Assembly: GCA_964544625.1 (NCBI GenBank)
Contig: CAZJBQ010000002.1
Location: 49,462-113,461 of the forward strand
DNA from: an uncultured Candidatus Peribacteria bacterium
Lineage (GTDB): Bacteria; Patescibacteriota; Gracilibacteria; BD1-5; JAGOOR01
DNA: 64,000 nt
Direction of reading: 5' to 3'
The first letter of the stretch is position 1. Every line of letters starts with the position of its first letter. The notes beneath the pieces are model-generated. The model was not told the DNA's origin and ran no database searches. It saw nothing but the letters and a program-made list of their open reading frames with translations. The translations under genes and the position numbers were made by a program. Of this stretch, positions 14,715 to 49,225 are shown piece by piece.

Positions 14715-14717
14715 TTA

Positions 14718-14945
14718 TTGCATTCCACTTTCTATCTATATAATCATTATATCAGCCCTGACTCCTGCTATCACAGGACGTGTCCTCCGAAGCCTTGGCG
14801 AAGGATGGACGAGCTGAGGGAAGAAATCGCAAGAAAGTAGACCCCTCCGGACACTGCACGTGACGCAGATAAATCAAGTACCGTTTTCGGTGGTAACTTC
14901 CTCACAAGAGGACCGAAACACACAGTTTATTTTGTGTGTTTTTTT
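14718..14945 (+). promoter_or_regulatory. promoter plus T-box-like leader of ileS
   Basis: TTGCAT-15-TATAAT. Antiterminator-like fold: helix UUUCGG/CCGAAA (14885-90/14913-18), 7-nt bulge UGGUAAC (14891-97), helix UCCUC/GAGGA. Competing hairpin AAACACACA/UGUGUGUUU plus a U-run ends at the ATG. Confidence 0.55.
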
Positions 14946-17900
14946 ATGCCCTTCTCTCTCCCCAAATGAAAACCCGAGTTCTCAAAACTCGAAGAATCTA
15001 TCCTCCAGTATTGGAAGGAAAATAAGACCTTTGAAAAATCAGTCGAATCCAGGCCGGCTGAAAATCCGTATCGATTCTATGATGGTCCTCCATTTATCAC
15101 GGGTACTCCGCATTATGGGAGCTTGCTATCTTCGATAATCAAGGATGTTGTTCCTCGCTATCAGACCATGCTCGGGAAGCGCGTCGAACGTGTCTGGGGA
15201 TGGGATTGTCATGGACTTCCAATTGAGCAAAAAGTACAGAAAAAATTATGACTTGAATCAAATAAAGAAATCGAAGAATCAGCAGGTGGAATCCAGGGAT
15301 TTATCGATGAATGTTACGCCTACACTCGCGATACTTCAGCAGAGTGGAGCTGGTATATCGATCATATCGGTCGATGGGTGGATATGGAGGGTGCGTACCG
15401 CACGATGGATCAGAACTATATGGAGTCGGTCATGTGGGTCTTCAAACAAATCTGGGAGAAAGGATATATCTACGAAGGGAAGCGTGTTTCGTGGTATTCT
15501 TGGAAGCTCTCGACCCCGATTTCAAACTTTGAAATCGCGATGGATGACAGCTATCAGGATGTCCAGGATCCAGCGATTACGGTGAAATTTCCACTCACAC
15601 AAGATACCTCAAAACAAGATGAGGTGCAGGGGTGAAAATTTGAATATACAGAGGATGGATATCTCCGATATGTCCTCGCAGTCATCCGAAATGCTGATGG
15701 TGAAGTTCTCATGCTCCAAAATAAAAAACACTGAAATACATGGCAATGTCCTGGTGGAAAAATTGACGCAGGAGAAACGGCAGAAACGGCTCTCAAAAGA
15801 GAAATAAAAGAAGAACTCTGAGTCGAGATAACCATCAGAAAGCATCTCTGAAATCGAAAAGTTTTCACTCAGCGTACTTTGTGGCAAGGGGAATATTTCG
15901 AAGTTGAGTTATTATCAAATCCAACTATTCAAGAACCAGAAAAACACGCCCAGATGCAGTGGATGAAAATCATAGACGATCCAGAACTCGTTCATGGTTA
16001 CTATCTCCAGTATGGTGAACATATTATTACCGAACAGCTTGGTCGGATGTATGATGCTCTCGCACTTCGAGCAATAGAGAAAAAATTACCTGAACTCAAA
16101 AGCATCTCATTGCTCGCATGGACAACAACCCCGTGGACTATACCGATGCATATGGCGATTGCGGTGCACAATGACCTCACGTATGTGTTAGTGCAAATTG
16201 AAGATGAAGCCTATTTGGTCGCGAAAAACCGTCTTGAGACCGTCATGAAAGGCAAAAATTTTACTGTTCTTACTGAATATCCTGGTTCATTCTTGGTTGG
16301 TAAATATTATCGTCCACCATTTGATTATTACGTCGGAAAAATCGATGAGAGAAATTTCCGTGTCTATCACGCTGACTTCGTCACTGACACTGATGGTACT
16401 GGTATCGCTCACGAAGCTCCAGAATTTGGTGATGTGGATTTTCAGCTTGCGAAGCAAGAGGGGATTTTCATCACGTCTGCAATCGATGAAGCAGGGAAGT
16501 ATACGGCACAAGTCCCAGACTATCAAGGCACGCTCTATATCGATGCTATCGACCCTATCACGGAACGACTCAAAGCAGAAGGAAAACTCTTCAAAAAAGA
16601 AGGTATCACTCACCGCGTCCCATACTGTCCTCGCAGCAATACGCCACTCATGCAGAAAGCCCAAAAGTCGTGGTTTATCGATATTCAGAGAATCAAATCT
16701 GAGCTCATCGCACAGAATGAAAATATCAACTGGTTTCCAGATCACTTTAAGCATGGACGATTTCTCAAATCTCTCGAATCTGCTCCAGATTGGTGCATCT
16801 CTCGCTCTCGTTTTTGGGGAACGCCGATGCCTGTATGGCAAAGTGCAGACGGTTCTGAGCGTGTCGTCATCGATTCTCGCGAAGAATTGTATCAGAGAAA
16901 TAAACCACTTGGTCAGATAACAAAGATTATTTTTGTGAGACATGCGGAGAGTGAAGCGAATGTAGCAAAAATGTATAATGATAATGGAACGTCTCCTCTG
17001 ACAAAGAAAGGACATGAGCAGGCAAAAAAACTCGCTCAAAGTCTTGAACAAGTTGATGTTGTACTTTGTTCACCATTTTTGAGAACAACGCAAACAGCAG
17101 AACCAATTGCACAAAAATTCGGACTTGATATTGAGGTTCGAGAATATCTCCATGAAACCAATCATGGCACACTAGCTGATCAAACACAGACAAAAACGGT
17201 ACTGGAAGAAAGAAAAAAATTCTTCGAAAATCATGACCATAAGTTTGGTGGAACAGGCGAATCATTCAATGATCTTATTGCTCGTGGAGAGGTTCTCCGA
17301 CAAGAAATTCTCGCAAAATATCCTGGGAAAACAGTCGTGGTCGTGAGCCACGGACATCCAGTCAAGGCATTTCTCGTCGCATGTGGAGCAAAAAGACCAA
17401 GTAATACTGAAAATGCAAAACCATACGTACTCTATCTCGATAACAACACAGGCAAGGAAATCAATCTCCACCGTCCATATATTGATCGGATTTATGTCCC
17501 ATGAAAATCTTCTTTCACTCCGAAAAAAGTGCTCGGTATTCATGGATGGACTTCTGCTGGCATCCAAAATCCGCAAGGAAAATGGTTGCCAATTCAAGAA
17601 AAGCTCAAAGCTGCATGAGTGCAATTTGATGTACCAGATTTTGATAAAAATAAGGAAACGAAATATTCACTTTGGAAAGAGAAGCTCGATACTCTGGATG
17701 TAGCAAGTTATGATACCATTATGGCAACGAGCTTTGGTTGTCCTGTTATCATGCAGTACCTCTGTGAGAGAAATATTAAATTAAAACGTCTTGTGTTGGT
17801 TGCTCCAAGTGGTCTCAAAGGGAATGAGTACCTCGAAAAAGTGATTCCAGAAATGACGGAAGATGTTGAGAAACTTCGATGACTCGTGGAAGAAATAATA

Positions 17901-19646
17901 GTCCCCCATAGTGAAGACGATGACTCGACCAGCGCACGATTTGAATACGGTCAATCACTCGCAAAAAGAATAGGTGCAATATTCCTCCCTATCAATGGTG
18001 TAGGTCATAAATTTGGAGGTTGGAGTATTGATTTTCTTTCTTCTCTTATCCAACACGGAGCCCCACTCCGTCGCGTCTCCGAAGTCCTTGATGTGTGGAT
18101 GGATAGTGCTTCGATGCCGTATGCACAAGTGCATTATCCATTTGAGAATCAAGCGAAAATGGAAGCGAGTTTCCCAGCCGATTTTATCGCAGAATACACA
18201 GGGCAGATTCGTGCATGGTTCTACGTGATGCACGCGATTGGCGTGATGGTAAAATGATCGCCAGCCTTCAAAAATGTCGCTGTCACATGAGTCATCAATG
18301 GAACTGATGGACGCAAGATGAGTAAATCCTACGGAAACTATCCTGATCCTCGTGAGACGATTCAGAAATACGGTGCTGACGCGATTCGCTTCTACCTCAT
18401 GGGCGGTACGCTGATGAAGGGTGAAGATATGGCATTTTCAGAAGCAGGTATTCAAGAATCAATCAAACGAGTCCTCCTTCCGCTCTGGAATTCCTACACT
18501 TTCTTTGCGACCTACGCAAATATCGATGAATGGGAATTCACGGATTATTCAACACCAAAGACACACGAACTCGATACATGGATTATTTCTCGTCTCCATA
18601 CATTGATTCAGGACACGAGAGTCTCAATGGATGCCTACGATCTCCAGAAAACGTGTGATGCTATCATGGTCTTCCTTGATGGTCTCAATAACTGGTATAT
18701 CCGGCGCAATCGCAGACGTTTCTGGAGAAGCGAACTCGATGCAGACAAAAAAAGTGCGTACGAAACACTCCATGAAGCCCTCGTCACAATGACGAAACTC
18801 CTCGCACCTATCTGTCCATTTATCACTGAGCATCTCTATCAGAATCTCATGAATACGACGGAATCACTGCATCTCACTGACGTCCCAGCAGAAAGCAGAG
18901 AGCACCTCCACCTCGCCGCGAAACAGAAAATGACACACCTCCAAAATCTCACCAATCTCGGTCTCGCTATTCGTGGTCGTGAGAAACTCCGCGTTCGACA
19001 GCCACTTCGAGCAGCGACGATTACCCTCGAACTCGATGAGAGCGCACGAGAGACACTCGCTGAAGAATTGAACGTCAAGGAAATACACAGTGTGAAAGAT
19101 GTCTCGGACTATGTCACCATTACCTATTCTCCTGATGCGAAAAAAATCGGAGCGACTGAGAGAAAACAATGGATGAAAACCATTATTGCTGATGCAAAAG
19201 CAGGGAAGGGGAACCTAACTTCAGAGGGGACTCTTGAACTCACGGTCCCAGAAGCACCAGACGGAAAAGTGGTTCTCGCTGCGGATGAATTTGAAGCGGT
19301 CTATACACCAAAAGAAGGTTCAACCATTGCTTTTGCTGGTAGCGCAGGATACGTCATCGGTCTCGATACAACCCTCGATGAAGCACTTACCTTTGAGGGC
19401 TATGCTCGTGATATGATTCGCGGTATTCAGGACGCTCGAAAAGAACTCGGATTCCAGGTCACTGATAGACTTCAACTCGCACTGACATCAGACAATGAAA
19501 TGCTTGGAAAAATTCTCGCCGTCCATCAAGGTATGATTGAAAAAGAAACTCTCACAACTGTCGAACTTCAGACTTCAAATCCCGAAAATACGAGAGAAGT
19601 CGAAATCGATGAAGGCTTTATGATTCATCTCAGTCTTACAAAATAA
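14946..19646 (+). CDS. ileS: isoleucyl-tRNA synthetase with three inserted enzyme domains (1566 aa)
   Basis: PHYGS (HIGH-type), WDCHGLP, WTTTPWT, LHRPYID and KMSKS motifs. All track fragments (15378, 15879, 17619, 17886, 18318) are in frame 0, joined by eleven TGA. Confidence 0.95.
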
Positions 19647-23837: not shown

Positions 23838-23978
23838 TTGATTTTCCATATAGACGCTTACAATATCTCTATGACATCTCGTCACAACATGATTATTATT
23901 ATCGCTTCGCATCACGCAGAGGGATAATATTTTCTTGTCATCATATTTTCTAACCTCTGCATCCGCAGAGGTTTTTTT
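23838..23978 (+). promoter_or_regulatory. isoleucine leader-peptide attenuator of ilvA
   Basis: TTGATT-15-TACAAT, then 6 nt, then ATG 23871. Leader encodes MTSRHNMIIIIASHHAEG (23871-23927). GCAGAGG at 23916-22 duplicates the terminator 3' arm (23965-71). The 5' arm CCTCTGC is at 23954-60. U7 at 23972-78. Confidence 0.7.
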
Positions 23979-23990
23979 ATTTTCTTTTTT

Positions 23991-25193
23991 ATGAAAACCA
24001 TCACACGTCCCGAGATAGAGAGGGCACAATCAGTTCTCCGAGAACATCGCATAGGAAATACTCCACTCACATCTCTTCAAAATCTCGTATCGTACCGACA
24101 AGGTACTGTACTTGGGAAGCGCGAAGATGAAAATGAGATAGGTTCGTACAAGATACGATGAGCGCTCTATGCTATCTCTCAACTCTCGCCTGAGCAGAAA
24201 AAAAGAGGAGTTGTCTGTGCATCGGCTGGCAATCATGCTCAGTGAGTTGCCTATGCTTGCAAACTCATGTGAATCCAATGAGTTATCTATATGCCCCGTA
24301 CGACGGACGCTACGAAAGTACGTCGAGTAAAGGAATTCGGTTGAGCCTCTGTTGAGGTTCGACTCGTATGAGATTATTTTGATCAGGCACAACAGGCCGC
24401 AAAGAAATATCAACGAGAAAAACGAGCCACTTTTGTCCATCCATTTGATGACCGTGACGTCATCATAGGGCAATCAACAGTGACGGCAGAAATACTTCAT
24501 GAAAATCCAAAAATACAAAATCTCATCTATCCTGTTGGTGGTGGTGGACTCATGACTGGAGGTATCATGGCACGTGATGCTCTCGGGAGTAGTGCTCTTA
24601 TTATCGGTGTAGAGCCAGCAGGAGCGCCGAGTATGACGCATGCCCTGGAACAATGAAAAAATTCTGCACTCAGTCACGTCAATAGATTTGTTGGATGAGC
24701 CGCTGTCGCTCAGGTCGGGAAAAATACATTTGATATTGTTCGAAAATCATGATCACAGATAGCCCTCGTTCCAGAGTGACGTGTGGCTCAGACAATGATT
24801 GATTTTCATCATGCTGGTGAAGTAGTCGAACCTGCGGGAGCACTCTGACTGGCAGGGGTTCATGTTCTTTCAGGCAAGCTTCGCGGGAGTGTCACCACTG
24901 TAGTATCTGGTCGATGCGTCTCTCCCAGTATGTGGACTGAAGTCCAGGGTTTAGCTGAGAAATTTAGTGGCAGAAAAATGATACTTGATATCATATTCCC
25001 CGAGAGAGAGGGCGCTCTTTCTTCTCTCCTCAAAGTACTTCCAAGGGGAATAAATATTGTTGCCTTTAATTATCAGAAACATTCTGGTCCATCGAGTCCA
25101 GCTCGGATAGAATTTGAGGGTGAGCCCGCCTCTCTTCATCGGGTACCATTTTTGATAAAAAAGGCTGGTTTTGCCTATTCTGAAGCGGAATAA
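23991..25193 (+). CDS. ilvA: threonine dehydratase (threonine ammonia-lyase) with C-terminal regulatory domain
   Basis: SYKIRG(TGA)A lysine motif, ASAGNHAQG(TGA)VA and GGGGL loop. 400 aa in one frame. Confidence 0.9.
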
Positions 25194-35454: not shown

Positions 35455-36223
35455 ATGATACGTGATATCACATCGATATTTCGAGAGTACCAGATTTGTC
35501 CTTCATTTGAGACAGAGCAGAGAGACTTTGCTGACGTATTCAAAAATCTCCCGCATACGACTATTGGTAAATGATTTTTTTCATAGGGAGTACCTGCTCC
35601 TGTGTCGATATTTCGGTTATTTCGGAGATGGATATGAGCACTATGATGATTATGCTGCTCTCACTGCCTTTCAGTATGGTTTTCGTGCGAATTTGAGCTT
35701 TCTTTTTCCCGTCTTAGAGCATCGATTTGGTATCAAGATTTCTGAAAAAATATTCGCAGAATTGCCAGTCTTGCACAATTTTCTTCCCAGAGAATACCTC
35801 TGTTACTGAGCAGCAGTATCAGAAGAAAATAAAGAAAAAAATACTTCCTATATTATCCAAGAATTTCTCTCCGGGAAGCCACTCTCTGATATGGATATGG
35901 ATGATTTTTCTCGAGAACAGCTCCTGCAGATGTATCTGTTTTGTCTCCTCGCTCTTCTCTTTTTTGTCCATACTGGTTCTGTCCTCGATACACGTCCGAG
36001 CAAAGATCCAAAACACTGGGTACACTGGCTCATGAAAACAGAAAATATATTTGTCACACACGATAGAGGTGTGCAGCTCCTCGATACTCGATGGCTCTGG
36101 AATACCCACAGCAATCTCGTGCGACGATGAGTACTCATACCAGAACTCATCATCCAGAGTACGGTCCGTACGGTCAAGAGCATCGAAAAGAGACTTCATT
36201 TGCTCGAAAAGGAGGAGTTGTAA
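35455..36223 (+). pseudogene. kinase-fold-like gene interrupted by a frame change at a T7 run
   Basis: Frame 1 runs from ATG 35455 (...TTIGKG(TGA)FF) to TAG 35584. Frame 2 is open to TAA 36221 (IIQEFLSGKPL...VHTGSVLDTRP...LLDT). The junction is at T7 35575-35581. Confidence 0.45.
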
Positions 36224-36250
36224 TTCTTGGGATTTTTTCATAATGAATAT

Positions 36251-36814
36251 ATGTTTTGATTGTACACCATTCTTCTGGGGGTTTTTCTCGCTCTCCTCGA
36301 AATAGAGATAGAAGGAGAACATGGATGGGCTGCGAAGTTGCCAACATGGCGGCGAGTATTCCCGAGTTTACCTCTCTCGTTTTTGCGAAATATGACGGGG
36401 TATCATATCACACTTTTTGCTATGATACTCGTGCTCAATCATGTCGTATTTATCGGCATGGTTGATCAGTACTCACTCGGACACGAATTATTCATACTTG
36501 GTTTTCATTTTTTCCTGATTATTTATTGGGATTTCCTGTGGTTCGTACTCAATCCTCACTTCACGCTCAAAAAGTTTGAAAAACAATATATCCCATGGTA
36601 CCAACATGTAGAGTGGAAATTCGGAGGTCCCATGGATTATTGGTATGCTCTCTCACTCTCCGTTATATGTGTCATAATTGGTCACCTCTTTACGGGCGAT
36701 AGTCGCATTGTGGACCAATACATGGTGACATTTGTCGCGAGTATTGTCGTCATTTTTATTGCTATCATTGTGAGCCCTCGGTACGGTCGATGGTACTTTT
36801 TTATGCGAAAATAA
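36251..36814 (+). CDS. polytopic membrane protein, function unknown
   Basis: ATG 36251, one early TGA, multiple hydrophobic segments. Its stop overlaps the next ATG (TAATG). Confidence 0.55.
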
Positions 36815-37479
36815 TGACCTACCAAAAACACATCGCTAATATCGTGACGACTCTCGGAATCATCACTGGTATAGTAGCTTGTGTTGGAGCATTCTACCGT
36901 CCATCGTTTATACTTGCGGAGATATATCTGGTCATAGCCCTTATCCTCGACGCTCTGGATGGTTGGTGTGCGAGGCGTTTTGGCGGTCATTGGTTTGGTC
37001 CATACTTGGACGATATAGCTGATGCTATTAATTTTGGTCTTCATCCAGCAGTATGGGTCTATCTCCTCTCTGATTCGATACTTTTGGCGAGCATTTTCAC
37101 TCTCAGTATCATATTTCGCCTCGTACGATTCACTCTTCAAAAAGAAAATAAGAGCGTATTTTTTTCATGACTTCCATCGCCAGCCAGCGCTATCGCTCTC
37201 CTCGGATTATTATTTTTTACAGATTCGGTTTTAGTGGCTGCTCTCGGCGTCATAACACTCTCTGTACTATCGTGTTCGACTCTCCCGTGTCTCCATGTGA
37301 TCAAGTGAAATCATATCGCACCGCGTACGCTCTTCATAGGAGCAATAGTATTTTTTGTCATACTGTGGTGAGTATCGGGAGGACAGTTTTTTCTTATACA
37401 ATTTTGGTCCATCATGGCCTATGTCCTTTTGTCGGGACTCCTTTTTTATAATCCTCGTCTATGATTGCGAGACTCTTAG
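36814..37479 (+). CDS. CDP-alcohol phosphatidyltransferase (phosphatidylserine-synthase-like)
   Basis: D-x2-DG-x2-AR-x8-G-x3-D-x3-D motif: DALDGWCARRFGGHWFGPYLDDIAD. Confidence 0.8.
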
Positions 37480-38000
37480 AGGTATTTTTCATATTTTTGC
37501 CGGCTTTCGTTGGCAATGCACTCCCCGTGGTTGCGAAAAATATACCCGGTATTCGACGATTTTCTCGCCCTATAAGTCCGATATGGTTGGGTAAAAATAA
37601 GACTTATCGTGGTCTCATAGCTGGCGTTTTGGGCGGTATGCTCTGTGGTATTATTTTGACAGCATTGGTTCACAGCGGTTTCCTCCTGCAGTGGTCTCGA
37701 TTTGATTCTTTTTATCGTGATTTCTGAAATGGTATTTTCTTTGGTTTTCTCTTGAGTTTCGGAGCCCTGATTGGTGATATGATCAAGAGTTTTGCGAAGC
37801 GTCGTGTTGGTAAAAAGCCAGGCGCTATGTTTCAGCCATGGGACGGTATTGATTATATACTCGCGACTATCATAGTTATGCTTCCGTTTATTTTTCTTTC
37901 TTGGATGGAGATTATTTTCTTGCTCCTGATAGGTCCATTGCTGAGTCTCACGTGTAATATAATGGCCTATTCAATAGGGTGGAAAGACTGCTGGTACTAG
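37461..38000 (+). CDS. CarS-like (DUF46, CDP-archaeol synthase family) cytidylyltransferase
   Basis: LPAFVGNALPVV...LGKNKTYRG...GALIGDMIKSFAKRRVG...PWDGIDY matches the family pattern I know from archaeal CarS. Confidence 0.65.
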
Positions 38001-38866
38001 AGAGATTTTCCGATACTTTCACCTGTTATTATTTCTGTCTCGATTCCTTGTGTACTCATCGAGATGATATCGTCTGCGATGGAGATTTTATTTTCCTGGA
38101 AGAGGATGAGTACAGCTGAGCCTCCGAGTCCGAAATATCATTTTTCTTGTCATAGAGTGAATCGTTCTCAGACTCGCAGATGATTCGTTATAGATCCGAC
38201 ATTTGTTGCCCCTACTTCGAGCCAGAGGACATCACCAAAATTTTCTGTTCTGAGACGCATGAGATGACTCTTATTTTCTAACCAGAGACCGGTTCTGAGT
38301 ACACTATTATCGACCGAGTAGAGGAGGCCATCACGAGCCTGAGAGGAGAGCACTTCACCACTATCAAAAAAATGAAATCGATGATAATCGGAAAAACGGA
38401 GTCGAAAAAAGAGGAGATCTCCACCCGAAAAATCAGCGCTCTCAGGGCCAAAGAGTTTTTCTACATTGGTTGGAGTTCACTTCACCATACATGGTCATTT
38501 TTGTGAGAGAGCACGTGTGACTTCGAGACACCCATCCACAGGGCTGCAGATGATTTTTTTCTCAGGGGAAAACATGCGGTATTCTGGCTTACTTTTTCGA
38601 ATAAAAAAATCTTGCACACTGACAAAACCACCCGGAGGGACGATATATGTCGTAGTATCGATGTGGTATTTTCGTATCAATAGAGGGAGGAGTATTCGCG
38701 ACCAGCGAGTTCAAAAAATCCTCCCCATACCTGCAGAGAAGAGACGGGTGCGAATGAGAGAGAGGCACAATTTCCCGAGAGAAGAAAAATAGAGGAAATT
38801 GAGGAGTTTACTCTCAGCTCAGCTCTGGAGTTGTTTTGTGGTACGTGAGTAAAATTGTTGTTGCAT
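37997..38866 (-). CDS. psd: phosphatidylserine decarboxylase proenzyme
   Basis: FRLRFSDYHRFHF, EVGATNVGSI and G(TGA)YFGLGGSAV (cleavage-site region). Track fragments 38168 and 38495 share a frame. Confidence 0.85.
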
Positions 38867-38873
38867 ACTCTAT

Positions 38874-39272
38874 TTATCAATTCTGAGCTTCAGTATATGC
38901 TTTCTTTGTTTTTGTATAGCTCTTCATGAGTTCCTGACAAAACTCTCTACAGAGAGGATCGAGTGGATCAATCTCGCAGAGGCGTAAAAATTGGAGATAG
39001 ACACAATAGACTCGAAAATGATTCAAAAGCTGTCTCTCGAGAGGCGTTAGTGTTCCTTTTTCGAGGAGAGATTGTCAGAAATCTATTTCTGTTTTTATTC
39101 CATACCTCATGAGAAGCGTAATATACTGTTGGAAATCCCGTTTCCCTAATCGAGCCGTTGGCATACCTGTTAAAAAACGGATACCACGCAGATAATCGGG
39201 TATACCAGGGTTTTCTCGATTACCACCAGTGACGACAACGAGGGTTGAGAGATATTGTTGGTCTATTTCCAT
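38874..39272 (-). CDS. hypothetical protein (132 aa), first gene of the psd operon
   Basis: ATG 39272, two TGA, TAA 38874. Confidence 0.5.
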
Positions 39273-39417
39273 AAAAAACTCCCCTTTTTGAGGGGAGAGA
39301 ATAAGTGATAAAAATTACACACATCTACCCCCCAAGTTTTTGGAGAATCTTCACGGCGAAAGAAGAAGATGAGAGATGCTGCATATTCTTAGTCTATCAA
39401 TTTATCAGAAATTACAA
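39273..39417 (-). promoter_or_regulatory. serine-run leader-peptide attenuator upstream of the psd operon
   Basis: TTGTAA-15-TAGACT, then 6 nt, then ATG 39384. Leader encodes MQHLSSSSFAVKILQKLGG (39384-39325). Terminator CTCCCCT/AGGGGAG (39279-39297) plus U6 abuts ATG 39272. Confidence 0.6.
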
Positions 39418-39870
39418 GCGTAATCAGAGGAGAAGTCTTCCCATAGCACTCATATCCTCGATTGCTTCTTGAGTTATATGCGTCGCGATGAGAGTGGTAA
39501 CTTCTTCGATATTGACAGTTGGATCGAGAAATATATCGAGCCTATCAACAGTTTTGCTCTTGAGCGTAAAGCGGAGAATCATCGGTGTATTATCGACTCG
39601 AATAATACGAAATGATTGCATACGATCATACGCATAGAGGACACCACTCAGAGATATACCTTCATCATTGACGATGACATTCACGACCGGATGAGTGTTG
39701 ATATCATAGAGGAGGTAGACGCCAGCGAAGATGATGAGTACGATACCCAAGAGGTATTCTCCTACCAAAAAACTCACAACTGTACCACTAATAATAACAG
39801 TAGCCGCAATAGCATACCAACGTTTGCTTCGTTCGAATCAGCTCGAAAATGCCCATGAAAAAGGTCCCAT
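39412..39870 (-). CDS. membrane protein, two N-terminal TM helices plus a soluble domain
   Basis: Track ORF 39424-39777 extended in frame both ways (ATG 39870, TAA 39412). Confidence 0.5.
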
Positions 39871-41878: not shown

Positions 41879-42017
41879 TTTCCTTTTTGAACGATTTTTG
41901 ATATACTCTCCCCGTAGTCAGTCAAAAATGCAAGAATTTGGTTCCCCAGATTCTTTTTTTTACCCAGAGTTTCTCTATACTGTTTTTGACTGATATTTAT
42001 TTTTCATTTATTGAACT

Positions 42018-45004: not shown

Positions 45005-45152
45005 TTGACAAAAATTTCATTCGTCTAAAATTATCTCTATGCGTCAAACCAGTTCACTTCTTCTCAGCCTTCTTCTTTCCCACCGGGAGAGTTAGTTTGC
45101 TGCGAAGAAAAACCACGCACTTTCCACTCTCCCCGAAACGGGAGAGTTTTTT
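45005..45152 (+). promoter_or_regulatory. leucine leader-peptide attenuator of leuA
   Basis: TTGACA-15-TAAAAT, then 7 nt, then ATG 45039. Leader encodes MRQTSSLLLSLLLSHRES (45039-45095). GGGAGAG at 45085-91 duplicates the terminator 3' arm (45140-46). The 5' arm CTCTCCC is at 45127-33. U6 follows. Confidence 0.7.
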
Positions 45153-45170
45153 ATTTCTTTAATTTCTTAT

Positions 45171-46952
45171 ATGAGCAATGTAATGCACGAATTGGATATC
45201 CACTATGAAGAATGGTGAGAAATAATGGCACAAGTGATATCTTGAGAAAAACCCCTCGGTTTTCTACCCAAAAAGGAAAGTACTACGACTGGTTACAAAA
45301 TTTATAAGCCAGAAAAAGTTATTATCAACGAAGTTGGACCACGTGAATCGGACCAAGCAGGCGGATGATTCCAGCCCTGGAACAAAAAAGATATGATAGG
45401 CTCAGCTATAAGAGCCGGTATTCCAGCTGTAGAGGTGGCATTTGCGGCAGGAGTAGACATGCAGACTATTGACTGGGCCGTATCTGAATTTGGCCGCGAA
45501 AATACACGTTTATCAGCTCTAACAGGATTCTTCCCACAAGCTATAAAAGAAGGAGCGGGGAAATTGAACAAAGCAAAGAATGGAGGAGTACATATTTTTT
45601 ATCCTACCCAAATACACCATATACAGGCTATGTTGGACAAAGACGGTAAGACACCAGTGAGAGATTTACAAGACCAGGTGCTCAAAATGATTGAGAATAA
45701 TGTCTGAATAGCACGCGATAATATCGGAAATGTCCAATTCTCACCGGAGATTGCTACTGATACTGATCCAGTTTTTCTCCTCGAATCTGTGAGAAAGGCT
45801 ATCGAGAGCGGAGCTACTATTATCAATATGCCAGATACACGAGGAGGAACGCCTACTTGGTATATGGAGAAATTATTTCATTTTATGAGTTGGGGTACAC
45901 AAGATTTACGAGAAAAACATGATTTTATATTTTCTTGTCATAATCATAATGATACAGGCATGGCTATTGCGAATAGTATTGCTGCTATTCGATGATGAGC
46001 TACACAAGTAGAGTCCACATTTTCTGGTGTTGGGGAATGAGCAGGCAATGCTCCAACAGAGCAGATAATAAATACTTTGAGACAGAATGGCTATGATATC
46101 GGAAAAATAGATAACAAGAAAGCATGAAGGATTGCTGAATATGTCAGAGCTGTTGTCTATGGTCAAGTGGTAGTCCCATATGGTCCCTGATCTGATGCAG
46201 ATGGTGCTGGAGTCCACAAGGATCGTTGGCATAAATATGTCGCATGGTGTCGAAAAAATAATCTTCATCCCAATCCTGATTTTTATAGAGCGGGCGCAAG
46301 TAGGCTCAATTTTGAAGCAGATAGTGATAATGTAGCGATAGGGAGGTTGGGCGGTGCAGGACAAGTTCTTCACGCTCTCAAGTCTCACGGTGTATTTCGC
46401 CCTACAAAAAAATGACCTACAGTAGGAAGGATACATACTACTTTTTGTGGTGACGATAAGGGAAAAATTGGCACCACACAAGAAACCAAAGTAGCCTATG
46501 ATTCAAACGTATTTGCTGAATATCTCCGTAATTCAAGGAGAATATCACAAGAAAATATATCTTTTGAGAATAATTCTGTCACTATTTCGGCTGTTATCAA
46601 TGGTAAAAATATAGTTATATCTGGGCCCATGAGTACCGAATCTGGTCCTATCCCGACAATTATTTGAGCTATTAATAGATTTTTAGGTAAAGAAATAATC
46701 AAACTTCACGTTGAGCCTATTTATAAACCAATATTCACACCCGATGTTGCTCAACAACAATTTCCAGATATTCATCAAAACGGAACTCATCACAGTGATG
46801 TCGAAGATGCTCCTCTCTGGTCTGAGGTTGTTGTCAGTGTTAACGGTATTAACAAAAAATCTCGAGTAAGATGACAAAATATTGATGAAACATTTATTCG
46901 TGCTATATTTGAAGCGTGCCTGGATGTGATATGTCAAAAAACAAAAGAATAG
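45171..46952 (+). CDS. leuA: 2-isopropylmalate synthase (LeuA/CimA family) with C-terminal regulatory domain
   Basis: MPDTRGG, CHNHNDTGMAIAN and GVGEG(TGA)AGNA motifs. Three track fragments in frame 0. Confidence 0.85.
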
Positions 46953-47691: not shown

Positions 47692-47966
47692 TTGACTCAA
47701 CTGAAGAAATCGCTATAGTTCTTTCATGCAAATAAATTTCACAACAAAGACGCCAAAACTTCTCACATCGAGAGGGTAGTTTTTGTTTAAAATTTAATTT
47801 TTCAAAACCCTCTCAACCTGAGAGGGTTTTATTTTTTACGAATTGTATGTCACATCACCTCTCTCTCATAACAAGCACCACCAAGAAACCGCCAAAGCGG
47901 GGAGGATAAATTATTGCCACTTTATTCTCCACTCCGCTTTGAAACATCTGAAGCGGATTTTATTTT
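47692..47966 (+). promoter_or_regulatory. tandem Thr/Lys-rich leader-peptide attenuators of lysC-asd
   Basis: TTGACT-16-TATAGT, then 6 nt, then ATG 47726. Leader 1 encodes MQINFTTKTPKLLTSRG (to 47779), with terminator 47808-47837. Leader 2 encodes MSHHLSLITSTTKKPPKRGG (47847-47909), with terminator 47933-47966. Confidence 0.65.
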
Positions 47967-47980
47967 CTCATTTTATTTTT

Positions 47981-49225
47981 ATGTCACAGAGTTTATCACT
48001 ACCGCGAGTCCTCAAAGTCTGAGGAATACAAGTAGCCCGTATCTCTGATACAAGACCTCTTATTCAACGCCTCAAACAAGATGGTCCACTATCAGTTATT
48101 CTTTCTGCTCCAAATACGGATCAATTTCGTACAACCAATGTCCTCATAGAAGCCGCTTCTTCGCTTGCTGCTTGAGATGTGCAAAAATCGAGAGAACTCC
48201 TCCTCTCTGTACAGGATTTTGTTCTCAATACTGTTTGTCTCCCCCTTCATGGGGAAGCTATTTTTACAAAAATACAGAGAGATGTGTCTGGGCTTTTCCA
48301 GCAATATTTCACAGATATGGATTTTTATTTACGTAAAAGGTCTCCAACGGCTCGACTCTATACTTCTGCTCCAGAAGAATCCAATGATTTTGTTGCATCT
48401 GTATGGAAAAAACCAACACACAATGGGCGTGGTGGATCTGGGAAACTTCAAACAGTGATACCATTTATCGAACTCGGTGAAAATATATCCGCGATTATCT
48501 ATGCACATCTGACTGGCGGAATACCGATCACGAGTCGATCATGGATGAGGGATGAAATTGCAGACGTTCATAAAAGAGTAAGAGAGAGTCAAAATCTCAT
48601 TATTTCATGAGCCCTCCGTATGAATGCTCGAGACAAAATGCTTGTTCGCTTCTGACGTGGATATACAGATGCAAATGCGTGACGCTTGGCCTTTGGCGCA
48701 GGAGCTGAATTGCTCGTTCATAAAGAATATCCTGTCTGTACTGCCGATCCAAGAATCGTAAATGGTTCGAGTCGACCAATACCCGAAGCCTCTATGGCAA
48801 CACTTCGTGCCAGTCTCCATCCTCTTGTTGGTGCTCAGTTTCTCAATCCTCATGTTTTCGCTGACGGAGAACCAGTGGATATTCAGGTTGGCGATTTTGC
48901 TTCGGAGAGGATAACGCGTGTTTCACGGAGAGATATACCCGAAGCACTCCCACTTATCCAAAAAGGTCCACGAGTACGGAGAGCTCAGGAGTGAATGAAT
49001 TTCTGAGATATATCTCTCTCAGTCAACGGATGAGGAGATGAATGTGTTATATCAGTCGTGGATCATTCTGCACGAAGTATAGAACGTGCTAGAGATATCC
49101 AGAGCATTCTTTGATCTAGAGGTGTTATTGTTTCACTCAATGAACGTGTTGCATCAGTATTGGTCCCATACGACCAGGCAAACGACATTGTTCGACAGCT
49201 TCATCAGAATATGTGCGAGACATAA
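47981..49225 (+). CDS. lysC: aspartate kinase with C-terminal ACT region
   Basis: VLKVG(TGA)G, SAPNT..TN and TADPRIV motifs. Three same-frame fragments. Confidence 0.85.

Follow-up and report, generated by a model that had tools for sequence, protein, structure and literature searches.

Why should a short open reading frame (ORF) with a run of serine codons, followed by a terminator-like hairpin, stand in front of a gene pair that includes a phosphatidylserine decarboxylase (PSD) gene, psd? The question is raised by element E1, which occupies positions 39273 to 39417 on the minus strand of the 64,000-nt stretch of DNA analyzed here (the window). The window comes from a Candidate Phyla Radiation (CPR) bacterium that uses genetic code 25. 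E1 lies directly in front of g132, a gene for a 132-aa protein, and psd follows g132. An earlier note on this DNA had proposed that E1 couples the charging of serine tRNA to this phosphatidylserine-consuming operon. The analysis presented here points to another answer, to which we assign a probability of about 65%: E1 would be a ribosome-mediated transcription attenuator in which a leaderless 19-codon ORF is read as an on/off switch, and it would be neither a conserved serine sensor nor a device built for psd.

Architecture and conservation of the E1 leader

All the features that the earlier note had listed were found at their minus-strand coordinates when the sequence was read again (Table 1). 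The leader ORF, ATG CAG CAT CTC TCA TCT TCT TCT TTC GCC GTG AAG ATT CTC CAA AAA CTT GGG GGG TAG, follows a pair of promoter-like hexamers and contains the first two of four segments that can pair in alternative ways. A terminator scan recovered the hairpin formed by the other two segments. A promoter scan missed the E1 promoter because it demands a 16- to 18-nt spacer; a spacing of 15 or 16 nt is the norm in the paralogous elements of the window, which are named E2, E3, and E4. The promoters of the window in general seem to use 15- to 16-nt spacers.

Conservation was followed in a set of 12 distinct, diverged versions of E1. The five closest of these form the sub-clade of the window, and the seven more distant ones were reached by a search with the upstream membrane protein (46 to 59% identical). 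A pattern scan of metagenome DNA gave one extra locus only (L062). In the intergenic region, the 3′ ~90 nt are 0.88 to 0.97 identical across lineages, compared to 0.5 to 0.8 for the adjacent g132 coding sequence, in which synonymous sites are saturated (dS of 1.2 to 2.8).

The conserved features, each of them kept in 12 of 12 lineages, extend from the promoter to the start of the next gene. The -35-like stretch CGCTTGTAA is invariant, and the -10 box, which reads TATACT, TAGAAT, TACAAT, TAAAAT, or TATAAT in orthologues, keeps its TAnnnT position. The spacer between the two boxes has a freely variable sequence and a length of 15 or 16 nt, and the distance from the -10 box to the ATG is 6 to 7 nt. 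The leader ATG itself is invariant between variable flanks. The ORF behind it stays open over 17 to 22 codons; its lengths of 54, 57, 60, and 69 nt are each in frame and place the stop codon at the same position relative to segment 2. This stop (TAG or TAA) is found 0 to 2 nt past segment 2, for which the orthologues have GGAGAG, GGAGGG, or GGGAGAG. About 30 nt past the stop comes the hairpin CUCYCC/GGRGAG and then T6 or T7, and this T-run adjoins the ATG of the downstream small gene. Because the T-run adjoins this ATG in all lineages and leaves no room for a separate promoter, the downstream gene would need read-through to be expressed. The encoded peptides share the core [ST]xSx[ILF]A[AVS][KA][VI].

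The RNA pairings are conserved as well. The RNAalifold consensus of the 12 sequences consists of a 1:2 hairpin within the ORF and a 3:4 terminator. Pairing over the 12 sequences reaches 95% in the 1:2 helix and 97.6% in the 3:4 helix, where two positions show compensatory changes from C-G to U-A; for the terminator form as a whole, the value is 96.5%, with double changes at three pairs. The alternative 2:3 antiterminator helix has six pairs, which are 100% paired in every lineage. One of them, at columns 61 and 103, is A-U in six sequences, G-C in four, and G-U in two. Moreover, a three-way covariation links columns 61, 103, and 116 (G-C-G, A-U-A, and, in L005, G.U-A), so that the covarying position of the 2:3 helix and the compensatory pair of the terminator itself change together. 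The two folds are so close in energy that not all lineages have the same one as the predicted optimum. As far as predicted structure can tell, conserved 1:2/3:4 pairings opposed to a conserved 2:3 pairing are the signature of a terminator/antiterminator switch. The assignment to the leader-peptide attenuator class made in the earlier note, with a promoter-proximal ORF and a GGGGGG antiterminator directed against the 5′ arm of the terminator, was borne out in that both the 2:3 pairing and the ORF are kept throughout the set.

Transcription probably starts at or next to A39384, so that the leader would be leaderless. We base this on the location of the ATG at the start predicted from the -10 box, the rarity of Shine-Dalgarno (SD) motifs, and the enrichment of this -10-box spacing in the window. 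Among 55 window genes (crude gene calls), SD-like motifs were found ahead of two, below the 12% background, and a -10-like TAnnnT was found 5 to 8 nt 5′ of the ATG in 14, compared to a background of 6.6%. This combination of rare SD motifs and an enriched -10-like box shortly before the ATG suggests that leaderless mRNAs are widespread in the genome. Segment 4 (AGGGGAG) was considered as the SD sequence of g132 and dropped, given the below-background frequency of SD-like motifs (2 of 55 genes).

Known regulatory RNA families were also considered. No match to Rfam 15 was found in the whole window at gathering thresholds, and the relaxed threshold around E1 gave chance-level matches only (E = 3 to 8). 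T-boxes, riboswitches, and known leader families were rejected for E1 because neither threshold gave a match.

These features can be combined into a mechanism. The promoter TTGTAA-15-TAGACT would start the RNA at or next to the A of the leader ATG, and a ribosome would load as the leaderless RNA emerges. The RNA segments would be UCUCC (segment 1), GGGGGG (segment 2), CUCCCC (segment 3), and GGGGAG followed by U6 (segment 4). With no ribosome on the leader, 1:2 and 3:4 would form and transcription would stop just before the g132 ATG. A ribosome that has arrived at the stop codon would cover segment 2, 3:4 would form, and termination would again result. A ribosome lingering at codons ~7 to 13, which bear the conserved core [ILF]-A-x-K-[VI], would mask segment 1 and not segment 2, so that 2:3 could pair and g132 would be transcribed; in the sub-clade of the window, such read-through would also transcribe psd. 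The same hairpin would end read-through from the upstream pilin-like/membrane-protein operon. Our best guess for the trigger is a slowing of elongation midway through the ORF, either through limitation of several amino acids or through a sequence-specific pause of the nascent peptide.

Table 1. Coordinates of E1, the genes behind it, and related elements in the window
Feature	Position	Strand	Remarks
-35-like hexamer TTGTAA	39417-39412	minus	Includes the TAA stop codon (39414-39412) that ends the upstream 152-aa membrane-protein gene
-10-like hexamer TAGACT	39396-39391	minus	15-nt spacer after TTGTAA; 6 nt before the ATG
Leader ORF MQHLSSSSFAVKILQKLGG, 19 codons + TAG	39384-39325	minus	ATG at 39384
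Ser codons 5-8 (TCA TCT TCT TCT)	39372-39361	minus	Inside the leader ORF
Segment 1, AUUCUCCAA, core UCUCC	39348-39340	minus	Predicted to pair with segment 2 (anti-antiterminator) in the RNAalifold consensus and the per-sequence fold
Segment 2, GGGGGG	39333-39328	minus	Predicted to pair with either of segments 1 and 3 (the latter as antiterminator); leader TAG directly after
Segment 3, CTCCCCT	39297-39291	minus	5′ arm of the terminator hairpin, 27 nt past the leader stop
Terminator loop CAAAA	Between segments 3 and 4	minus	Hairpin span 39297-39279
Segment 4, AGGGGAG	39285-39279	minus	3′ arm of the terminator hairpin
U6 tract	39278-39273	minus	Adjoins the ATG (39272) of g132
g132, 132-aa all-helical orphan	38874-39272	minus	Regulated gene, ATG at 39272; two in-frame TGA = Gly
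psd, phosphatidylserine decarboxylase	37997-38866	minus	Pfam PF02666, E = 6e-37; 8 nt after g132
E4, leader MTSRHNMIIIIASHHAEG + stop (Ile4)	Element 23838-23990, ORF at 23871	plus	Terminator, then ilvA 23991-25193
E2, leader MRQTSSLLLSLLLSHRES + stop (Leu6, LLLSLLL)	Element 45007-45170, ORF at 45039	plus	TTGACA-15-TAAAAT; before gene 45171-46952
E3, leader MQINFTTKTPKLLTSRG + stop (Thr/Lys, TTKTPK)	Element region 47692-47980, leader + terminator 47726-47838	plus	Before gene 47981-49225
Example in-frame TGA codons	39075-39077 and 38821-38819		Whole window affected

Related leaders elsewhere in the window

A covariance model of E1 gave weak matches elsewhere in the window. A scan for the architecture found four elements in the 64 kb, compared to none in 40 dinucleotide-preserving shuffles, and among unrelated loci it found one element in 376 kb. 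By these predictions, E1 is one of at least four such attenuators in the genome. The promoters of E2 to E4 share the pattern TTGnnn-15/16-TAnnnT-6/7-ATG, and each of the three leaders has a codon run that can be set beside the gene it precedes. The Ile run of E4 stands before a gene for threonine ammonia-lyase, IlvA (E = 1e-105); a counterpart of E4 at L077 (5882-5982) keeps the Ile run, and IlvA there is 54% identical. The Leu run of E2, which has the terminator CTCTCCCC/GGGAGAG + T6, precedes a gene of the HMGL/2-isopropylmalate-synthase (leuA) family. The Thr/Lys run of E3 precedes a gene with weak aspartokinase similarity. Because these runs match the pathways, the class looks credible as a set of ribosome-mediated attenuators.

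Some further observations concern these and other loci of the window. Behind E3, a second Thr/Lys-rich short ORF, MSHHLSLITSTTKKPPKRGG with its stop (47847-47909, plus strand), follows in apparent tandem, and past it lies what, by eye, resembles another hairpin and a T-run. The closest taxon-labeled relatives of IlvA outside its own clade (43 to 46% identity) are mostly from Bacteroidota (Tenacibaculum, Flavobacteriaceae), and the sequence comparison hints at a horizontal acquisition of ilvA. A leader of ~200 nt at 14715-14945 (plus strand) has promoter-like boxes (TTGCAT...TATAAT) and an internal GGTGGTA motif, and it ends in a hairpin and T7 that adjoin the ATG of a ~1,560-aa gene (14946-19646). 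The L077 homologue of this gene is an isoleucyl-tRNA synthetase (IleRS) with inserted NUDIX and His_Phos domains; a search for a T-box ahead of the IleRS-like gene at 14946 gave no Rfam match even at the relaxed threshold. Finally, a terminator-like hairpin, AAGAATTTGG/CCAGATTCTT + T7 (41932-41963, plus strand), is located just 5′ of nusA (ATG at ~42000) and is preceded by a short ATG-initiated ORF.

The gene slot behind E1

The length of g132 depends on the genetic code. Under translation table 11, the gene ends at 65 aa, and a product of 132 aa requires TGA as a sense codon. The genome was assigned to code 25 (TGA = glycine; Gracilibacteria/SR1-type) because reading TGA as sense increases the long-ORF coverage of the window threefold and because the self-cleavage motif of PSD, GLG[TGA]S, fits glycine at this codon. 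Related contigs bear a Gracilibacteria label. In public protein calls for relatives, Trp is placed at the TGA positions.

With a dN/dS of 0.09 to 0.20, g132 must be regarded as a real gene. A search of 5.8 billion proteins gave only four homologues; there is no Pfam match, and an exhaustive profile search of 1.84 billion representative proteins found no further relatives. This last search and the structure searches were run with an 89%-identical orthologue, P0001. The AlphaFold model of the orthologue is a helical bundle (pLDDT of 71.5), for which Foldseek found no PDB match below an E value of ~1. The suggestion in the earlier note that the unusual leader might serve as a clue to the function of the 132-aa gene therefore led no further, since neither profile nor structure searches find an identifiable relative.

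The gene order on the minus strand of the window is a holB-like gene, a type IV secretion system (T4SS)-pilin-like gene, the 152-aa membrane-protein gene, E1, g132, and psd. psd is probably cotranscribed with g132, and two genes that encode a CarS-like protein and a CDP-alcohol phosphatidyltransferase are convergent with this gene set. In distant lineages, the order is holB, pilin, membrane protein, E1, a small variable gene, and a convergent ribonucleotide reductase beta subunit (RNR-beta) gene. Thus, in 7 of the 12 lineages, E1 is followed by a small variable orphan and then by the convergent RNR-beta gene, and both psd and the lipid cluster are absent. psd occurs at the E1 locus only in the sub-clade of the window, and distant Gracilibacteria were found to have psd with neither E1 nor g132 nearby. 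Since E1 is kept without psd in distant lineages and psd is found without E1 elsewhere, E1 predates psd at this locus; as judged from these gene orders, it is older than psd and independent of it. psd apparently came under E1 by the later insertion of a lipid-gene cluster, and E1 belongs to the fast-evolving small orphan gene. What stands of the psd-operon link proposed in the earlier note is that psd follows the 132-aa gene here; the link does not extend to the seven lineages in which psd is absent behind E1. A functional connection between E1 and psd was rejected on synteny.

The slot behind E1 is variable. For instance, E1 is identical in L006 and L062, but the gene that follows it there bears hardly any relation to g132 (E = 0.057). 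In the window and at L006, L063, L066, L069, L070, L071, L074, and L076, the slot holds small proteins of 76 to 143 aa that belong to at least three apparently unrelated types, and the E1 leader is far better conserved than the genes behind it. In at least two distant lineages (L071 and L074), the slot gene is monocistronic, with a terminator-like hairpin after its stop. In the sub-clade of the window only, the lipid cluster seems to have entered this locus, with the small gene on one side and the convergent RNR-beta gene on the other (window, ~35700-38866; L001, 4743-8360). Besides psd, it contains a 313-aa gene, the gene for a 187-aa membrane protein, and genes for a CDP-alcohol phosphatidyltransferase and a CarS-like cytidylyltransferase.

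Alternative explanations and known systems

In the model of the earlier note, here limited to the sub-clade of the window, E1 senses seryl-tRNA: a ribosome stalled at Ser codons 5 to 8, or at least at 7 and 8, would allow 2:3 to form and g132-psd to be turned up. We consider this unlikely. E1 does belong to a class whose codon runs match the regulated pathway, and SSSS is improbable within 19 residues. In the five psd-bearing lineages, moreover, Ser 5, 7, and 8 are invariant and show synonymous third-base changes only (TCA/TCT; TCT/TCC/TCA), and the adjacent codons 2, 3, 4, and 6 freely change amino acid. However, the four-Ser run is not conserved beyond these lineages, an outcome that the earlier note had itself named as telling against its model. 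SSSS or SxSS was found only in the five closest lineages; the seven distant ones have 0 to 2 scattered, nonadjacent Ser residues ahead of the peptide core, and the L066 leader (MQTLFYIASKVLQKFGG) has none. The ilvA leader provides a calibration. Its run is still intact (MTSRHNNIIIITSPSAEG) in a lineage with an IlvA that is only 54% identical, and since IIII is kept at a similar divergence, genuine regulatory runs can be expected to survive it. A Ser two residues ahead of the hydrophobic core residue is present in 9 of 12 lineages, and the number of Ser residues ahead of the core is 3 or 4 where psd is present compared to 0 to 2 where it is absent, but this correlation is confounded by phylogeny because it comes from a single clade. 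The position of the run also speaks against serine sensing. Codons 5 to 8 correspond to nt 13 to 24 of the ORF and end 12 nt before segment 1 (nt 37 to 45), so that stalling at this site should leave the 1:2 helix almost undisturbed, whereas the codon runs of E2 to E4 abut or overlap segment 1. The composition of the run may have a simpler source, as TCT and TCA are already the most frequent Ser codons of the genome and the tract is pyrimidine rich in all lineages, which alone gives Ser, Leu, Phe, and Pro codons. The tract can also pair with GAAGA or with the purine stretch past the stop. For the latter, own-lineage duplexes had a mean of -10.8 kcal/mol compared to -9.5 kcal/mol for cross-lineage duplexes (permutation P of ~0.05), and the pairing was strong in L066 only; this would be a tentative RNA-level reason for the "Ser run." Furthermore, induction of PSD upon serine starvation makes no metabolic sense. 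On the comparison of the 12 leaders, serine sensing is not a conserved property of E1, and control of psd is not what it was built for.

Another possibility, which we rate as quite improbable, is an arrest-peptide switch of the erm/cat/tnaC type, in which [ST]xSx[ILF]A[AVS][KA][VI] would respond to a small molecule or an antibiotic by stalling the ribosome over segment 1, independently of amino-acid supply. What the 12 lineages conserve is a peptide motif and not a codon run, a stall at the position of this motif would mask segment 1 and leave segment 2 free, and the targets are hypervariable orphans beside a T4SS-pilin-like gene rather than biosynthetic genes. Yet the same nucleotides are constrained as RNA by the hairpin within the ORF and by segment 1, and conservation of the peptide may be a by-product of this; no ligand, resistance gene, or known arrest motif was identified, and all three paralogues are of the amino-acid type. 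A broader version of the idea, no more probable in our judgment, is that the [ST]xSx[ILF]AxK[VI] peptide of an episymbiotic CPR bacterium arrests on a cue such as a host metabolite or an antibiotic and turns on the orphan slot beside the T4SS-pilin-like locus, and that leaderless attenuation is a main mode of regulation in SD-poor code-25 Gracilibacteria. Still harder to defend is an E1 with no ribosome sensing at all, in which the hairpin is a plain terminator of the upstream operon, a separate structured RNA or small RNA gene lies in between, and the ORF is incidental. The hairpin does sit downstream of that operon and must terminate its transcripts, and it probably also serves as the terminator of gene 39412-39870; conservation of the 3′ half of the ORF is purely RNA level in the close sub-clade; and the terminated attenuator RNA rnTrpL can act in trans in other bacteria (PMC6614838). 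The earlier note had considered that the hairpin might be only the terminator of gene 39412-39870, but this is contradicted by the conservation of the leader ORF and of the antiterminator pairing, the latter with covariation. In addition, the ATG, frame, and stop position survive four ORF lengths, expression of a gene with its ATG next to the T-run in all lineages needs read-through, three paralogues have pathway-matched codon runs, and no Rfam family matches the element.

The attenuator reading, which we prefer, has points against it as well. Transcription start, leader translation, and termination were all inferred from sequence, as were the direction and the trigger of regulation, and the ribosome-footprint geometry consists of E. 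coli values that may differ in this organism. The covariation amounts to few independent events, essentially two clades and one intermediate. The small hairpin within the ORF and segment 1 constrain the ORF nucleotides as RNA. Not a single synonymous change is seen in the 3′ half of the ORF within the closest sub-clade; this conservation reflects RNA-level constraint and is not evidence of translation. Unlike its three paralogues, the E1 leader has no conserved single-amino-acid run, and its target is not a biosynthetic gene, which means that the usual logic of an attenuator is missing.

To our knowledge, almost nothing is known about gene regulation in CPR bacteria. The literature that we searched contained no report linking these bacteria to leader-peptide attenuation, which is negative evidence only. 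The present analysis indicates that a recoded, SD-poor Gracilibacterium apparently uses classical ribosome-mediated attenuators from leaderless transcripts. Such predicted attenuators on ilvA-, leuA-family, and aspartokinase-like genes are sequence-level evidence that reduced genomes monitor their own amino-acid supply. E1 is the odd one of the set: the switch is very strongly conserved, no amino acid is evident as the one sensed, and the gene slot behind it is replaced between lineages. It may thus be a defined entry point to the signal it responds to, and it could also help to reveal what fast-evolving orphan genes do. The analysis also corrects a tempting but wrong inference, that serine charging controls phosphatidylserine decarboxylase.

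E1 can be compared with the classical attenuators of Enterobacteria and their relatives (trp, leu, his, thr, ilvGMEDA, and pheA). Like these, it has a promoter-proximal short ORF, four segments in which the 1:2/3:4 and 2:3 pairings exclude each other, an intrinsic terminator ahead of the first structural gene, and a stop codon at a position from which a terminating ribosome would block segment 2. E1 thus shows these four structural hallmarks and lacks the conserved codon run and the pathway match, both of which are present in E2 to E4. It differs from the classical cases in that there is no conserved single-amino-acid run and the target is a hypervariable orphan rather than a biosynthetic operon. 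Furthermore, its leader is apparently leaderless, with no 5′ untranslated region and no SD sequence, its host is a code-25 CPR bacterium, and no Rfam leader model recognizes it.

The leaders of ermC/ermK, cat, and cmlA use arrest peptides for translational and transcriptional attenuation. By what is generally known of them, E1 is alike in having a short leader ORF with a conserved peptide motif instead of a codon run, and, by analogy, a stall in the middle of the ORF may free a segment that is otherwise paired just 5′ of the start of the structural gene. In contrast to these systems, no resistance gene is found downstream of E1, and no known arrest motif or inducer was identified.

A third comparison is with the leaderless polycysteine ORFs of mycobacteria, in which cysteine limitation stalls ribosomes and exposes the ribosome-binding site for the next gene (Canestrari et al., bioRxiv 10.1101/834739). 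The regulated structure of E1 differs in being an intrinsic terminator with a U-tract, in a genome that hardly uses SD sequences, and the E1 leader is without a poly-X tract. As judged from the spacing between promoter and ATG, however, E1 would likewise have a leaderless short ORF as its first cistron. Control of downstream genes by ribosome pausing, as proposed for E1, would be common to both systems, and in both, several loci per genome share the design.

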